Positions 7,148 to 55,985 of a stretch of 64,000 bases of DNA are shown one piece after another. The DNA is from Calidithermus chliarophilus DSM 9957. GTDB taxonomy: Bacteria; Deinococcota; Deinococci; Deinococcales; Thermaceae. Location of the stretch: assembly GCF_000430045.1 (NCBI RefSeq), contig NZ_KE387026.1, positions 74,844 to 138,843 of the forward strand. The letters run 5' to 3'. Under the pieces are notes generated by a model. It made no database searches. It saw nothing but the letters and a program-made list of their open reading frames with translations, and was not told the DNA's origin. Every line of letters starts with the position of its first letter. Position 1 is the first letter of the stretch. The position numbers and the translations under genes were made by a program.

Positions 7148-7241
7148 GAGGTCTGCTCAACGCCGAACGCCGAACGCCGAACGCCAAGGCGTCTCGCGTT
7201 TAGCGTTTTGCGTCTGGCGTCTGGCGTACGACGCAGGGCCC
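7148..7241. repeat. Heptamer tandem tracts in inverted orientation (CGCCGAA x4 then GCGTYTG x6) between sbcD and sbcC
   Basis: Direct reading: acgccgaacgccgaacgccgaacgccaag followed by gcgtctcgcgtttagcgttttgcgtctggcgtctggcg; the same heptamer family recurs at 8470, 40945, 44775, 46340 and 55815. Confidence 0.7.
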
Positions 7242-8469: not shown

Positions 8470-8672
8470 CGGGTTGTACGTCGTACGTCCTACGTCGTAC
8501 GCCAAACGCCAGACGCAAAACGCAAGACGCAAGACGCCAGACGCCCTTTGTTTACCCCCCTTAGCAAGGGGGGCAGGGGGGATAAACCCTCCCCGCGTGC
8601 GGGGAGGGAAGGGGTGGGGTTTACCACGAACTGACGGCTGATGGCTGACCGCTGACGGCTTACCGCTTCCCC
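8470..8672. repeat. Composite intergenic repeat, copy A (GTACGTC/ACGCMAG heptamers + TTAGCAAGGGGGG module with 10-bp perfect hairpin CCCTCCCCGC/GCGGGGAGGG + GCTGAC tract)
   Basis: Sequence seen directly; homologous composite copies at 46225-46420 (inverted) and 55775-55985. Confidence 0.75.
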
Positions 8673-32281: not shown

Positions 32282-33661
32282 TCAGAAGTACATCGGCTCG
32301 CGCCGCAGGAGTTTGCCGCGCCCCTTCTCGCCCACGAAAGCCCCGTCGCGCACCTGCACCTTGCCGCGCACCGTCACCACGCTGGGACGCCCGTCGATCT
32401 CGAAGCCCTCGAAGCCGTTGTAGTCGTTGTTCACGTGCTGGGTGCGGGCCGAGATGGTGCCGCGGTAGCTGGGGTCGTAGACCACCAGGTCGGCGTCGGA
32501 GCCCACCGCGATGGTGCCCTTGCGGGGGAAGAGCCCGAAGAGTTTGGCGGCCTTGGTGCTGGCGGCGTCCACGAAGCGGTGGAGGTCGAGGTGGCCCCGG
32601 CTCACGCCGTAGGTGTAGAGCAGGTTCACCCGGTCCTCGATGGCGGGGATGCCGTTGGGGATGGCGGTGAAGGCGTCCTTGCCCAGCATCTTCTGCTCGG
32701 TGTCGAAGGGGCAGTGGTCGGTGCCCACGGTGTCGATGAAGCCCTGGGCCAGCGCGTCCCACAAGGCCTTCTGGTTGCGCTTGTCGCGCAGGGGCGGCGA
32801 CATGATGTACTTCATGGCCTCCACCCCGCCCCGCTCGGCGTAGGTCTTGTCCAACAGGAAGTGCGGGATCACCGACTCGATGTAGATGGGCACGCCGCGC
32901 GCCTTGGCCGCCATGGCCGCCTCGAGCGCGGGCTTGCAGGAGAGGTGCACCACGTAACCGGTGGCGCCGGTGGCCTCGAGGAAGGTGGCGAAACGGTTCG
33001 TCCCCTCGGCCTCCACGGACTCGGGACGGCTGGGCTCGTGCCACTCGGGGCCGGTCTTGCCCTCGGCCAGCAGGCTCTGCTGCAAGCGCCCCACCAGTTC
33101 GGCGTTCTCGCAGTGCGCGGTGACGATGACGCCCAGCTCCTTCGCCAGCCTCATCGTCTGGTACATCTCCCCGTCGTCCACGCCGAAGAAGTTCTTGTAC
33201 GACAGGAAGATCTTGAAGGAGTTGATCCCGTCGGCCACGATCTCGCGGAGCTGGGCCTCGGTCTTGTCGTCGAACTTCGTCACCGACATGTGGAAGGTGT
33301 AGTCGCAGGCGCTGTTGCCCTCGGCCCGGCTCTTCCACAGGTGGTAGCCCTCGAGCGCGTCGTCACCCCGCGAGGGGCAGCACATCTCGATGTAGGTGGT
33401 CGTACCCCCCACCAGCGCGGCGATGCTGCCGGTCTCGTGGGTGTCCTTGGCGAAGGTCGCCATGAAGGGCAGGTAGATGTGCACGTGGGGGTCGATGAAG
33501 CCGGGAAAGACGTACTTGCCCGTCGCGTCGATGACCTCGGTGCCGGGGGGGGCCTCGAGGCCCCGCCCGATGCGGGTGATGGTCTCGTCCTCGACGTAGA
33601 TGTCGGCTTTGTAGCGTGAGTCTGCGGTGACGATTTCGCCGTTTTTGATGAGTAGAGGCAT
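32282..33661 (-). CDS. pydB: Dihydropyrimidinase (D-hydantoinase)
   Basis: MPLLIKNGEIVTAD...PGFIDPHVHIYLPF; cyclic amidohydrolase family; start ATG 33661. Confidence 0.85.
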   Translation of the reverse strand: MPLLIKNGEIVTADSRYKADIYVEDETITRIGRGLEAPPGTEVIDATGKYVFPGFIDPHVHIYLPFMATFAKDTHETGSIAALVGGTTTYIEMCCPSRGDDALEGYHLWKSRAEGNSACDYTFHMSVTKFDDKTEAQLREIVADGINSFKIFLSYKNFFGVDDGEMYQTMRLAKELGVIVTAHCENAELVGRLQQSLLAEGKTGPEWHEPSRPESVEAEGTNRFATFLEATGATGYVVHLSCKPALEAAMAAKARGVPIYIESVIPHFLLDKTYAERGGVEAMKYIMSPPLRDKRNQKALWDALAQGFIDTVGTDHCPFDTEQKMLGKDAFTAIPNGIPAIEDRVNLLYTYGVSRGHLDLHRFVDAASTKAAKLFGLFPRKGTIAVGSDADLVVYDPSYRGTISARTQHVNNDYNGFEGFEIDGRPSVVTVRGKVQVRDGAFVGEKGRGKLLRREPMYF

Positions 33662-33700
33662 ACGGGTGAAAAGGTGAAAAGGTGAAAAGGTAAAAAGCAC
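33662..33700. repeat. GGTGAAAAG x3 tandem octamer tract (left arm of the inverted repeat flanking the four-helix-bundle gene)
   Basis: ggtgaaaaggtgaaaaggtgaaaaggtaaaaag; inverted partner at 34150-34200; similar hairpin at 35610-35683. Confidence 0.65.
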
Positions 33701-33746
33701 GCGTTCGCTACCCTGTCACCTTCCGACCTTTGACCTCCTTTCGATG

Positions 33747-34139
33747 CTATTCCTTTGCCCTATGGCCATCCCGTTGCTCGCGTACCGAAGTTTGAAGCCT
33801 GCTGATCAGCCTGGAAACCTCCTCGGCCTGTTTGAGCAGCTTGTCGAAGGCAGGCGGCTCGAGGTAGCCCACGTCGAGTGCAACGTAGAGTTGCGACCTC
33901 AATTCGGCACAGGACGCCTTCGCGACGTTCAGAAACCGATGAAGCTCGGCTCGTCCCCCACGTTCGAAGCCCTCTGCGATATTGGACATCACCGAAACGG
34001 CCGCTCGCTGAGCCTGGCCGCTCAGGGCGTAGTCTTTCGAAAAGGCTGCTTGCCTGGTGGCTACGTACACGGCTCTGGTCAGCTCCCTCGCCTTTTGCCA
34101 GACGAATAAGTCCTCGAATCGCTCAACCTTCTTCGACAT
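33747..34139 (-). CDS. Four-helix-bundle protein (TIGR02436 family, formerly 23S rRNA intervening-sequence protein)
   Basis: FEDLFVWQKARELTRAVY...SGQAQRAAVSVMSNIAEGFERGG...FLNVAKASCAELRSQLYVALDVGYL matches the family consensus. Confidence 0.75.
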   Translation of the reverse strand: MSKKVERFEDLFVWQKARELTRAVYVATRQAAFSKDYALSGQAQRAAVSVMSNIAEGFERGGRAELHRFLNVAKASCAELRSQLYVALDVGYLEPPAFDKLLKQAEEVSRLISRLQTSVREQRDGHRAKE

Positions 34140-34195
34140 TTCCTGCGTTCTTCACCTTTGCCCTTTTTGACTTTTCACCTTTTTACCTTCTTCAC

Positions 34196-35581
34196 CTAGT
34201 GAATGTCGATCCCAACCTCTTTGCGGTACCGCTCCATGGCCTCCCAGTCCGAGCCCACCTCCGGGCGGGCCTTGGTGAGCTGGTCCCAGGTGACGCTGGC
34301 GCGGCCCGAGGGCACCTCGACCATCTCGATGCAGCCTTCCACCGGGCAGACGTTGTGGCACAGCCGGCAGCCCACGCAGTCCTCCTCGCGCACCACCGGC
34401 TGCGGGCGCGAGCCCACGGCCTCGAGCTTGCCGTTGGAGCGCACGTCGTAGCTGTAGGGCTGCACCAGGTTCCCGTTCGCGTCCACCAGGTCGATGCACT
34501 GGTGGGCGGTGTCGTTGCAGGCCACGTAGCAGAGGTTGCACTTGATGCACTTGTCGGGGTCGATGCGGGCGACGGCGCGGAAGGCGAGGTCGAAGTCCTT
34601 GAAGTCGGAGATGCGGTGCAGGCTCTTGCCCACCACCTCGTCCACGCTCTTGAAGCCCTTGGAGTCCATCCAGTTGGAAAGCCCGTCGCAGAGGTCCTCG
34701 ATGATGCGGTAGCCGTAGTGCATCACGGCGGTGCACACCTGCAGGCTGCTGGCCCCCAGCAGCAAGAACTCGGCGGCGTCCTTCCAGGTGCTGATGCCGC
34801 CCATGCCCGAGATGGGCAGCCCCGAGCGGCGCACCACCTCGTCGGTGCCCAGGGCCGAGAGCATGTTGAGCGCGATGGGCTTGACCGCCGGGCCCGCGTA
34901 GCCCCCGTGCCCGCCCTTTCCGCCGATGTTGGGGGTGATCTCGAGCGTATCCAAGTCCACGGCCACGATGGAGTTGATGGTATTGATGAGGCTGAGCGCG
35001 TTGGCCCCGGCGTTCACGGCGGCGCGGGCCGGGTAGACGATGTTGGTGATGTTGGGCGTGAGCTTGACGATCACGGGGATCTTGGCCACGTCCATCACCC
35101 ACCGCGTGATCTGCTCGCAGTACTCCGGCACCTGCCCTACCGCGCTGCCCATGCCGCGCTCGCTCATGCCGTGCGGGCAGCCGTAGTTGAGCTCGATGCC
35201 GTCGGCGCCGGTGTCCTCGATCTTGAGGACGATGTCGCGCCAGGCCTCGGGCGTGGACTCCACCATGGCCGAAACGATCACCGCGCGGTCGGGCCAGTGG
35301 CGCTTGACGTCGCGGATCTCCCGGAGGTTGACCTCCAAGGGCCGGTCGGAGATGAGCTCGACGTTGTTGATGGCGAGCATCTTCTGCCCGCCGTAGTGCC
35401 ACGCGCCGTAGCGGTTGGACACGTTGAGCACCGGCGCCCCGATGGTCTTCCACACCGCCCCGCCCCAGCCGTACTCGAAGGCCTTGTGGATCTGCGCCCC
35501 CGAGTTCGTCGGCGGCGCCGAGGCCAGCCAGAAGGGGTTGGGGGACCGGATTCCCGCGAAATTGATGCGAAGGTCAGCCAT
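34196..35581 (-). CDS. preA: NAD-dependent dihydropyrimidine dehydrogenase subunit PreA (DHOD-like domain + 2x[4Fe-4S])
   Basis: MADLRINFAGIRSPNPFWLASAPP...ELNYGCPHG...CIKCNLCYVACND; GGAG RBS 7 nt upstream of ATG 35581. Confidence 0.85.
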   Translation of the reverse strand: MADLRINFAGIRSPNPFWLASAPPTNSGAQIHKAFEYGWGGAVWKTIGAPVLNVSNRYGAWHYGGQKMLAINNVELISDRPLEVNLREIRDVKRHWPDRAVIVSAMVESTPEAWRDIVLKIEDTGADGIELNYGCPHGMSERGMGSAVGQVPEYCEQITRWVMDVAKIPVIVKLTPNITNIVYPARAAVNAGANALSLINTINSIVAVDLDTLEITPNIGGKGGHGGYAGPAVKPIALNMLSALGTDEVVRRSGLPISGMGGISTWKDAAEFLLLGASSLQVCTAVMHYGYRIIEDLCDGLSNWMDSKGFKSVDEVVGKSLHRISDFKDFDLAFRAVARIDPDKCIKCNLCYVACNDTAHQCIDLVDANGNLVQPYSYDVRSNGKLEAVGSRPQPVVREEDCVGCRLCHNVCPVEGCIEMVEVPSGRASVTWDQLTKARPEVGSDWEAMERYRKEVGIDIH

Positions 35582-35609
35582 AAATGCTCCTTTCAGGGAA
35601 GGTGAAAAG

Positions 35610-35683
35610 TGGAAAAGGTAAAAGGTCAAAAGTAAAGTCCAGGTCTTTAACTTTTCACCCTTTACCCTTTTGACCTTTTCACC
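35610..35683. repeat. Imperfect ~32-bp-arm inverted repeat (GGTGAAAAG-type) between preT and preA
   Basis: ggtgaaaagtggaaaaggtaaaaggtcaaaag ...loop... cttttcaccctttacccttttgaccttttcacc. Confidence 0.65.
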
Positions 35684-37021
35684 TCAATCATCCGCCGCCG
35701 CGCGAAGCGGCACCAGCTTGCGGTGGATGGCGAAGGCCGCGAGCTTGCCGTCCTCCACCGCCATCACCGTCGAGGCCGAGCCCTTCGCCCGCACGCAGTC
35801 GCCGCCCGCGTACACGCCGGAGAGGCTGGTCTCGAAGTCGTCGTTGACCTTGATGTAGCCCTTCTCGGTCTGCAGCCCCAGCATCTGCGCCAGCGCGGGT
35901 TTCTCCTGCCCGATGGCCTTGACCACCTGGTCGGCGGGGAGCACGAACTCCGAGCCGGGGACGGGCCGCGGCGCCGGGCGGCCCGAGGCGTCCGGGGCGC
36001 CGAGCTCCATCCGCACGCACTCGAGCCCCGTCACCTTCCCGCCCTCGACGATCACGCGCACCGGCTGGGTGAGGAAGCGGAACTCGATGCCCTCCTTCTT
36101 GGCGAACTCGTACTCGTGGGGATAGGCGGTCATCTCGGCGTCGGTGCGGCGGTAGACCATGGTCACGCGCTCGGCGCCCAGCCGCTTGGCGACGGTGGCG
36201 CAGTCGATGGCGGTGTTGCCCGCACCGATCACCGCCACGTTGCGGCCCACCTCGAGGCCCTGCGGGTTCATCTTGCTGGCCTCGATGTAGCTCAGGCCGT
36301 CGACGATGTGCTCCTCACCGGGGATGCCCAGCGCAGGCACCGCGCCCAGCCCCACGCTCAGGAAGACCGCGTCGTACTCGCGGCGGATCTGCTCGAAGGA
36401 GAGGTTGGCTCCCAGCTCCATGCCGGTCTTCACCTCCACCCCCAGCCGCTTGACCATCTCCACCTCGGCCAGCGCCACCTCCACCGGCTCGCGCAGCACG
36501 ATGATGCCGTAGGTCGAGAGCCCCCCGGGCAGCTCGCGCTTCTCGAAGACCGTCACGCTGTGCCCCAGCTTGGCGAGCTCCCCCGCGCAGGTGAGCCCCG
36601 CCGGGCCCGCGCCGATCACCGCGACCTTCTTGCCGGTGGGGGGCCCTGCCTTGAACACGTCGATGCCCCGGCTGTACACGTAGTCGGTGGCGTAGCGCTG
36701 CAGGCGCCCGATCATGATGGGCTTCTCCTCGGCGTTGAGCACGCACGCGCCTTCGCACAGCTCCTGCACCGGGCACACCCGGGCGCACGTCGCGCCCATG
36801 AGGTTGGCCTCGAGGATGGTGCGGGCCGAGCCCACCACGTTCTCGGTGGCGATCTTCTTGATGAACTTGGGGATGTCGATGTGGGTGGGGCAGGCGTGGG
36901 TACAGGGCGCGTCGTAGCAGTAGAGGCAGCGGTTGGCCTCCACCACCGCTTCATGGTCGGTGAGCGGCGGGTAGTACTCCGCCAACACCTCCTCAGGCCG
37001 GATAATCTGGCGATCGTTCAC
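35684..37021 (-). CDS. preT: Dihydropyrimidine dehydrogenase subunit PreT (glutamate-synthase small-subunit-like NAD(P)H oxidoreductase)
   Basis: CLYCYDAPCTHACPTHIDIPKFI...VAVIGAGPAGLTCAGELAKLGHSVTVFEKRELPGG. Confidence 0.85.
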   Translation of the reverse strand: MNDRQIIRPEEVLAEYYPPLTDHEAVVEANRCLYCYDAPCTHACPTHIDIPKFIKKIATENVVGSARTILEANLMGATCARVCPVQELCEGACVLNAEEKPIMIGRLQRYATDYVYSRGIDVFKAGPPTGKKVAVIGAGPAGLTCAGELAKLGHSVTVFEKRELPGGLSTYGIIVLREPVEVALAEVEMVKRLGVEVKTGMELGANLSFEQIRREYDAVFLSVGLGAVPALGIPGEEHIVDGLSYIEASKMNPQGLEVGRNVAVIGAGNTAIDCATVAKRLGAERVTMVYRRTDAEMTAYPHEYEFAKKEGIEFRFLTQPVRVIVEGGKVTGLECVRMELGAPDASGRPAPRPVPGSEFVLPADQVVKAIGQEKPALAQMLGLQTEKGYIKVNDDFETSLSGVYAGGDCVRAKGSASTVMAVEDGKLAAFAIHRKLVPLRAAADD

Positions 37022-40921: not shown

Positions 40922-40985
40922 GTAGGGGCAGGCACGAGACCTGCCCCTACAGCGTCTTGCGTCTTGCGTTTTGCGTTTGGCTCGA
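40922..40985. repeat. Hairpin GGGGCAGG-cacgagac-CTGCCCC + TACA + GCGTCTT heptamer tract (composite repeat, partial copy)
   Basis: The same hairpin + heptamer module is at 44757-44795. Confidence 0.6.
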
Positions 40986-46224: not shown

Positions 46225-46420
46225 TGAGCTTTAAGCTGTCAGCCCTCAGCCGTCACCTATCAGCTCGTGGCCCGTGGTGAAACCCCTCCCGTGGGGAGGG
46301 TTTATCCCCCCTAACCCCCCTTGCTAAGGAGGGGAACATGGCGTTTGGCGTTTGGCGTTTGGCGTTTGGCGTCTTGCGTCTTGCGTCTTGCGTTTGGCTA
46401 TCAGCTATCGACCATCGACA
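46225..46420. repeat. Composite intergenic repeat, copy B (inverted relative to copy A): GTCAGC tract, GGGAGGG hairpin, CCCCTTGCTAAGG, GGCGTTT x4 + GCGTCTT x3 heptamers, CTATCAGC tract
   Basis: Direct sequence comparison with 8470-8672 and 55775-55985. Confidence 0.75.
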
Positions 46421-55774: not shown

Positions 55775-55985
55775 GGTCGATAGTCGATAGCTGATAGCCG
55801 ATAGCCGGGCGCGGGTCGTACGGCGTACGTCCTACGCAAAACGCAAGATGCAAGACGCAAGACGCCCCTTCTCCACCCCCCTTAGCAAGGGGGGCCGGGG
55901 GGATACCCCCTCCCCGCGCGCGGGGAGGGGTTTCTTCTACACCACAGGCCCCTACCTTTCGCTGACGGCTTACAGCTTATCGCTT
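55775..55985. repeat. Composite intergenic repeat, copy C (GATAGC tract, ACGCAAG heptamers, TTAGCAAGGGGGG + CCCTCCCCGCGCGCGGGGAGGG hairpin, GCTGAC tract)
   Basis: Same order and orientation as copy A at 8470-8672. Confidence 0.75.

Follow-up and report, generated by a model that had tools for sequence, protein, structure and literature searches.

An inverted-array cassette with a four-helix-bundle gene in a pyrimidine-catabolism operon of Calidithermus chliarophilus, probably related in type to rRNA intervening sequences

The intervening sequence (IVS) in the 23S rRNA of Coxiella burnetii carries an S23p open reading frame (ORF) and is closed by a 28-bp terminal stem that is cut by RNase III (PMC4990558). 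Upstream of its ORF lie three tandem heptamers (GACAGAT) whose copy number varies between strains (PMC4990558). Tandem repeats of similar length are known from cyanobacteria, where 7-bp short tandemly repeated repetitive (STRR) hairpins lie between hupS and hupL and may serve transcript stability or translational coupling, as has been suggested (PMC2670836). Genes of the family PF05635 have been found between cas genes (PMC3936711; PMC10910872). Here we describe a four-helix-bundle (4HB) gene of PF05635/TIGR02436, the S23p/Avd-like family, that lies between inverted tandem arrays in an operon of Calidithermus chliarophilus DSM 9957. It is the only 4HB gene in the 64,000-nucleotide stretch analysed (contig NZ_KE387026.1, positions 74,844 to 138,843), which we call the window and number from its first letter. 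The family is very large, with at least 7,998 clusters at 90% identity among the matches listed, and to our knowledge it has no known function outside the Avd protein of diversity-generating retroelements (DGRs). The reading that we favour, with moderate confidence, is that the gene and its arms form an IVS-type cassette that is co-transcribed within an mRNA operon. Established here are the anatomy of the cassette, its gain and loss as a unit, the family-wide polarity and pairing of the arms, the co-inheritance of repeat unit and protein, and a recombination mosaic around the insert.

The cassette of about 540 bp fills exactly the gap between the stop codon of preA (34196-35581, minus strand; NF006183, 667 bits) and the start codon of a dihydropyrimidinase gene, also called hydantoinase (32282-33661, minus strand; TIGR02033, 528 bits). 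Its sole ORF is the 4HB gene of 130 aa (33747-34139, minus strand), and no transposase, integrase or nuclease is encoded. Read along the minus strand, it begins with the upstream arm S1 (34140-34198), a sense array of 8-nt units (AGGTGAAG AAGGTAAA AAGGTGAA AAGTCAAA AAGGGCAA AGGTGAAG) that starts within the preA stop codon TAG (34196-34198) and stops directly 5' of the 4HB start codon. The gene is followed by a post-stop segment (33698-33746) with a Shine-Dalgarno-like GAAAGGAGG, degenerate sense units S2 (TCAAAGGTCGGAAGGTGACAGGGTA) and a loop, and then by the downstream arm A (33662-33697), an antisense tandem array of period 8 (CTTTTTACC TTTTCACC TTTTCACC TTTTCACC; score 21) that ends 3 nt 5' of the dihydropyrimidinase ATG (33659-33661). 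No Shine-Dalgarno sequence was found between arm A and that start codon (window 33640-33700). Alignment with two related loci introduced below, L005 and L008, showed that the layout of arm A and the post-stop segment with GAAAGGAGG are conserved in all three. On the plus strand the left tract reads as three copies of GGTGAAAA followed by GGTAAAAA, and the right tract (34151-34196) is its imperfect reverse complement. Inverted arms around the gene had been described in an earlier sequence-only reading of the window, and they are indeed present, with 81% complementarity over 31 nt (33665-33695 with 34157-34187) and 89% over 27 nt (33671-33697 with 34163-34189), but the left tract lies at 33665-33697 and not at 33670-33700, and the unit is 8 nt and not 9, a G common to adjoining units having been counted double in that reading. 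An Rfam scan of 33400-35900 found no rRNA and gave only spurious microRNA hairpin matches, and the site of the cassette is a spacer between protein-coding genes, unlike the rRNA-internal position of an IVS. No promoter-like site was predicted for the cassette and no terminator-like site on its coding strand.

The same 8-nt unit recurs at the other end of preA, in the spacer that separates it from a preT-like gene (35684-37021; Fer4_20 and Pyr_redox_2 domains). The preT-like gene opens the operon and is co-directional with the other three. In this spacer the unit forms an inverted repeat without an ORF (35599-35684, minus strand), with a sense arm at 35651-35683, a loop region of 18 nt at 35633-35650 and an antisense arm at 35599-35632. 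The sequence-only reading had also picked out this hairpin and its short loop. Its sense RNA is predicted to fold at -43.9 kcal/mol (z = -4.9; 0/200 shuffles fold as well), and the true Shine-Dalgarno sequence of preA (GAAAGGAG) comes after it. The arms of the two spacers are mutually compatible, with a predicted duplex of -40.3 kcal/mol. With at most one mismatch, the window has 20 occurrences of GGTGAAAAG, where 7.4 +/- 2.7 would be expected (0/100 shuffles reach 20), and its exact copies are confined to three spacers of this operon.

Related operons allow the insert to be compared with sites that lack it. The PreA of the window is 94% identical to that of a Meiothermus sp. metagenome-assembled genome (MAG) and 90% identical to that of M. 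granaticius. The 4HB gene with 8-nt arrays is found at the same junction and in the same layout in L005 (a Thermaceae MAG) and L008 (a JGI contig). Six Meiothermus operons (L209, L217, L210, L218, L211 and L212) are without the 4HB gene, and none of these six has arrays in either the preA-dihydropyrimidinase or the preT-preA spacer. In the closest of them, L209 (PreA 95%) and L217 (94%), the preA-dihydropyrimidinase spacer is only 12 nt long and holds a Shine-Dalgarno sequence, AGGGGGTG, before the start codon; the other four have unrelated spacers of 47-223 nt. The ORF-less hairpin is absent from L209-L212 and L008 in the alignment and from L217 by its spacer sequence. Since close relatives have either both the arms and the ORF or neither, arms and ORF constitute one inserted unit, and since the six operons have arrays at neither spacer, the cassette and the ORF-less hairpin are both insertions. 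Alignment against the empty sites showed no target-site duplication at the cassette boundaries. The sequence-only reading had suggested looking at orthologous operons without the insert, and these bear out the joint absence of arms and ORF but contradict its idea of an empty versus an occupied hairpin site, as the six gene-free operons have no hairpin or array at the preA-dihydropyrimidinase junction. Homing into an existing hairpin therefore finds no support at this locus, where the spread within the genus looks like homologous recombination; recombination between matching arrays may be a route into empty hairpins. Outside Meiothermus, the order preT-preA-4HB-hydantoinase is found in a Trueperaceae chromosome (L014; OZ243927.1, 2940-3480), with arms of the GGACTGAG type and a normal Shine-Dalgarno sequence before the hydantoinase gene. 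Either the insertion is old and common to both lineages, with arms that have since turned over, or this junction was hit twice independently. As other Meiothermus lineages and the Trueperaceae genome also have the 4HB gene here, the insert is not demonstrably recent.

The flanking genes carry a record of how the cassette has moved within the genus. We took as informative those sites at which the empty type (L209 = L217) differs from the cassette type (L005 = L008). Within preA the window agrees with the empty type at 64 sites and with the cassette type at 14. Over nt 1-600 of the dihydropyrimidinase gene its agreement is with the cassette type (24:9), and over nt 601-1200 it returns to the empty type (27:8; Fisher p=7e-5 for the contrast with nt 1-600). 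This switch marks a recombination tract that includes the cassette and reaches ~600 nt into the dihydropyrimidinase gene, and shows that the cassette allele has in all probability been exchanged or lost within Meiothermus by homologous recombination through the flanking genes. Such exchange would also fit the patchy spread of the cassette over three PreA clades. The preT-like gene is itself a mosaic when compared with L005, L008, L209 and L217 (empty type to cassette type 32:38, with a 3:13 block at nt 601-800), which suggests that recombination may be frequent across the whole operon among Meiothermus lineages. In L008 (3268-3955) preA and the cassette are separated by a Uma2-family gene, after which the last ~100 nt of preA occur once more, as a copy of ~88% identity joined directly to the upstream arm. 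The duplicated preA end together with the Uma2 gene appears to be the footprint of recombination at this junction.

To see how far the layout extends, we surveyed the gene family with one genome per species, which gave 80 loci spread over many phyla, their proteins being 53-70% identical. Almost all have tandem arrays upstream of the gene and their reverse complement downstream. When arms were scored by the highest ungapped complementarity of the 150 nt before the gene with the 200 nt after it, the median was 21.5 against 7 for shuffled controls, whose maximum of 10 was exceeded by 70 of the 80 loci; RNAduplex on the same 150/200-nt flanks did not usefully separate own from mismatched flank pairs. 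Polarity is fixed. Among the 70 loci, two tandem units in sense orientation stand upstream in 61 and in antisense orientation in none, while downstream the counts are 61 antisense and 2 sense. Carriage of the gene between inverted arms, as the sequence-only reading had suggested, is thus a property of the family. The array period is 7 in 54/54 upstream and 54/57 downstream arrays, and an 8-nt period occurs only in the three Meiothermus loci (the window, L005 and L008). The units themselves vary among loci (GGACTGA, GTGCTGA, GTGATGA, GTCCAAA, GTTCCGA and others), and the two arms of a locus mirror each other down to the order of variant units (e.g. L031, L067 and L078). Proteins whose arms have a unit in common are more similar to each other (67.4% identity versus 60.8% otherwise; 0/2000 permutations as extreme) even though they come from differing phyla, and therefore the arms travel with the ORF. 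A stop triplet, which over three units would put stops into every reading frame, is contained in the unit of 39/54 arrays (p=1e-7) but in only 13 of the 25 distinct units (p=0.14). Both neighbours are co-directional with the 4HB gene in 43/64 loci (binomial p=1.5e-12), and the 4HB start lies a median of 74 nt from the upstream stop codon. Arrays also accompany more distant family members (L118, L111, L206 and L207).

Exceptions to this layout are the 4HB genes of L213-L216, where the neighbours are an N6/N4 methyltransferase and an SNF2/ResIII helicase of ~1000 aa each. Their 4HB proteins (L213 2440-2900, and L214-L216) are 73% identical to that of the window and overlap the helicase start, and GGACTGA arrays in sense orientation lie upstream of the 4HB gene and, in L216, also at the 3' end of the ORF, but an antisense arm is missing.

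These data bear on two more ordinary explanations of the repeats. The tracts could be low-complexity sequence of the kind found near ribosome-binding sites, or a product of slippage, standing beside the gene by coincidence. The sequence-only reading had itself named this as the outcome that would count against it, and some features do point that way, since AAGGTGA as a unit is similar to a Shine-Dalgarno sequence, many unrelated metagenome contigs have the 8-mer array but no 4HB gene, and the window holds other heptamer arrays. Coincidence would not, however, give paired arms of fixed polarity in 70 of 80 loci, nor the joint loss of arms and ORF in relatives, nor exact window copies confined to three spacers, and we consider this explanation barely credible. 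A regulatory leader for pyrimidine catabolism, that is an attenuator or the binding site of a regulator, with the 4HB protein as that regulator, would account for the unit shared by three spacers of one operon and for the several alternative pairings of their arms. The nearest relatives, however, have this operon with none of the elements in it, and the same cassette architecture is found in unrelated operons of other phyla (rfb, coaX and restriction-type loci), which leaves such a leader highly improbable.

The protein itself is a member of the family, as the sequence-only reading had assigned it. It matches PF05635 with 118 bits (cutoff 33.8, E=2.8e-34) over profile positions 1-105 of 106 and TIGR02436 with 108.5 bits (cutoff 24, E=2e-31), and it contains the SNIAEGF motif. 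PDB entry 2GSC was matched by sequence (E=6.5e-14), and an AlphaFold2 model of the monomer (pLDDT 90) has four long helices. In Foldseek this model is close to 2GSC and 2RLD (TM 0.86-0.88), which places it with the four-helix bundles of XCC0516 and BT_0352, and it also resembles the DGR Avd structures 4DWL and 8UB7 (TM 0.81-0.84), with a PHROG match to 'Avd protein of DGR' (E=2.8e-5). PADLOC gave no defence family at E<=0.01 for the 130-aa protein or for P0004 and P0008. Full-length coverage of the Pfam model and a dN of 0.166 with dS saturated (dS of preA 0.73-0.81 in the same genome pairs) show the ORF to be intact and constrained. Its G+C content at third codon positions is 0.70, against 0.96-0.97 in the neighbouring genes. 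We considered this dip as a sign of recent arrival and dropped it, since the ORF is lower in G+C than its flanks in 58/61 loci, and an offset that is family-wide does not date the insertion.

Since 2GSC and 2RLD each hold five chains, the form in which the homologues XCC0516 and BT_0352 were crystallised, and XCC0516 is described as a homopentameric torus (PMC4990558), the protein could act on the arrays as a ring. In such a protein-RNA autoregulatory module a pentameric 4HB ring would bind the units of the upstream arm in the manner of TRAP, one AG(G/T) core per 7-8 nt, and this binding would compete with pairing of the arms and so control translation of the gene itself, processing of the RNA or the downstream gene. 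The module is compatible with a co-transcribed cassette. In its favour, AG[GT] is present in 22/25 distinct units against about 0.33 expected (p=2e-8, a statistic inflated by the descent of units from one another), and this core is kept while other positions of the unit vary. The period stays at 7 or 8 while the sequence drifts, the arrays have typically ~4 copies, the upstream array is always in the 5' leader and in sense orientation, and Avd sits in the DGR ribonucleoprotein. However, the binding is hypothetical and the pentamers are those of homologues, whereas the protein here was modelled as a monomer alone, and the same arrays occur in many places without a nearby 4HB gene. We regard the module as rather unlikely on present evidence.

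If the insert is an IVS-type cassette, as we favour, a course of events in the operon RNA can be proposed. Apparently having neither promoter nor terminator of its own, the cassette would be read as part of the operon transcript, in which the two arms would pair into a stem of ~35 bp that encloses the ORF. The predicted duplex of S1 with arm A has an energy of -40.6 kcal/mol, so that the insert, like an IVS, has complementary enclosing termini, and in the minimum free energy (MFE) structure of the 561-nt sense RNA S1 is paired with 33662-33700 across the entire ORF. Alternatively, arm A would pair with the degenerate sense units just 3' of the ORF, for which a local S2:A duplex of -32.0 kcal/mol is predicted; the local hairpin of post-stop segment and arm A has -32.5 kcal/mol (z = -3.3). 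By analogy with the S23p-bearing IVS of Coxiella, the long stem would be a likely substrate of RNase III, and cleavage would free the 4HB mRNA and part the preTA mRNA from that of the dihydropyrimidinase. The insert also seems to have taken away the Shine-Dalgarno sequence of the dihydropyrimidinase gene, for which the conserved GAAAGGAGG 5' of the local hairpin may substitute if the hairpin brings it next to the AUG. The preT-preA hairpin would then belong to this repeat family too, without an ORF and comparable to the STRR hairpins.

Several observations weigh against this course of events. The 561-nt RNA is not more stable overall than its shuffles (z = -1.1). In the MFE structure of the local hairpin both GAAAGGAGG and the dihydropyrimidinase AUG are paired, so that the idea of a split Shine-Dalgarno sequence is unproven. 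Mismatches between arms show no sense-strand excess of the types compatible with G:U pairing (25 versus 34 of the opposite type). Selection at the RNA level is therefore not claimed and a role of the arms at the DNA level is possible; their complementarity could be maintained as DNA, or the arms could be of recent origin. The methyltransferase-4HB-helicase operons L213 and L216 have sense arrays without an antisense arm. Finally, of 120 loci (L089-L208) retrieved by a metagenome scan for GGTNAAAAGGTNAAAAGGT, on contigs of mostly 30-55% GC, 117 have the 8-nt array without a nearby 4HB gene, and none was informative for Meiothermus.

Arrays and hairpins of this kind are hence a wider phenomenon than the gene, in that the gene is almost always armed while most arms are gene-less. 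At distances above 300 nt from the 4HB gene, the 80 surveyed loci contain another 45 heptamer arrays, at a density of ~0.12 per kb compared with ~1.3 per kb beside it. Where ORF-less arrays lie near a cassette, 20/39 have the unit of that cassette against 8.3 expected. Among the metagenome contigs, GGTRAAAA/GGTAAAAA octamer arrays are frequent in those of 40-55% GC, many of which look like gut or rumen Bacteroidales, and some arrays sit within larger repeats of ~40 nt (e.g. L119 and L161).

It is possible, though we lean against it, that the cassette is instead a mobile element at the DNA level, with the arrays as terminal repeats or homology arms and the 4HB protein as a nucleic-acid-binding factor. 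Cassettes would then enter matching ORF-less hairpins through recombination of the arrays, or the hairpins would be non-autonomous derivatives resembling miniature inverted-repeat transposable elements (MITEs). The lack of a G:U bias and the mirroring of variant units between arms are in keeping with this, as are the sharing of units between cassettes and nearby ORF-less arrays, including the preT-preA hairpin, the lineage-specific insertion of both the cassette and that hairpin, proteins ~70% identical across phyla and ORFs of lower GC than their flanks. Such an element would, however, have to move with no transposase, integrase or nuclease of its own and leave no target-site duplication, and the orthologous empty sites have no hairpin for it to home into. 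A scan of viral contigs found no close relatives, and the sole documented movement is homologous recombination through the flanking genes.

Other repeats were observed elsewhere in the window. The sbcD-sbcC spacer (7148-7241) has an ORF-less hairpin of four AACGCCG units followed by inverted GCGTTTA/GCGTCTG units, and an ACGCCAG/ACGCAAG array of the same family lies upstream of sbcD (8476-8545). With related heptamer arrays on both sides, sbcD is bracketed by complementary arrays. A dispersed composite repeat, made up of GACGCAA, GCTGATA and GTACGTC heptamer arrays and two small G+C-rich hairpins (CCCCCCTTAGCAAGGGGGG and CCCTCCCCGCGYGCGGGGAGGG), has at least three copies in the 64 kb (8476-8620, 46270-46420 in reverse orientation and 55776-55935), with a short array at 40952-40978. 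Long repeats in 33500-35800 are the arrays of the operon only.

Taken more broadly, the results connect three separate puzzles, namely the ORF-bearing IVSs of rRNA, the STRR hairpins and the 4HB genes scattered in operons and in CRISPR and restriction loci. We put forward as a tentative idea, and one that may well prove wrong, that 4HB genes with inverted arrays of 7-8 nt and an AG(G/T) core are a single ubiquitous, unnamed type of cassette. The rRNA IVSs would be copies that landed in rRNA, STRR-type hairpins would be non-autonomous relatives, and a ring-shaped protein would bind the heptad arrays and drive the processing, spread or maintenance of the arms. The fixed layout of sense array, ORF and antisense array gives the PF05635 family a defined candidate nucleic-acid partner. 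For the biology of operons, the insert is a case in which the ribosome-binding region of a gene has been replaced without inactivating the pathway. No paper was found in the full-text literature searched, which is incomplete, that describes the arm-ORF-arm layout for 4HB genes outside rRNA or the array strings, and no report linking STRRs to 4HB genes was found in the searchable literature.

Among known systems, integron cassettes resemble the 4HB cassette in being promoterless small ORFs with imperfect palindromic DNA borders whose expression is driven by the host, but the 4HB cassette has no integrase or attI, has two inverted arms in place of one attC, and is scattered singly. Like MITEs and the repetitive extragenic palindromes and mosaic elements known as REP/BIME, the elements of this operon are short palindromic inserts in operon spacers, with ORF-less copies alongside a protein-coding relative. 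They differ from these in having no target-site duplication, no transposase or REP-associated tyrosine transposase (RAYT), and arms made of tandem arrays that differ between loci. Avd of DGRs has the same fold, belongs to the same superfamily and is a ring-forming protein associated with nucleic acid; the 4HB gene, however, stands alone between catabolic genes, with no reverse transcriptase and no template/variable repeat pair beside it. The preT-preA and sbcD-sbcC (AACGCCG/GCGTCTG) hairpins are, like STRRs, intercistronic hairpins of short tandem repeats. The preT-preA hairpin is intergenic as STRRs are, but its unit, like that of the cassette arms in the window, L005 and L008, is of 8 nt and not a heptanucleotide, the host belongs to the Deinococcota and not the cyanobacteria, and the arms of the cassette enclose a 4HB gene. 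Closest are the ORF-bearing 23S rRNA IVSs of Coxiella and Leptospira. Whereas these lie in helix 45 of 23S rRNA, with RNase III cleavage described for that of Coxiella, the cassette lies in the spacer of an mRNA operon, with an 8-nt unit and arms that are whole tandem arrays. Both nonetheless carry a PF05635/S23p ORF in a loop closed by complementary termini, both have short tandem repeats just upstream of that ORF, and both would be carried passively in the transcript of their host.

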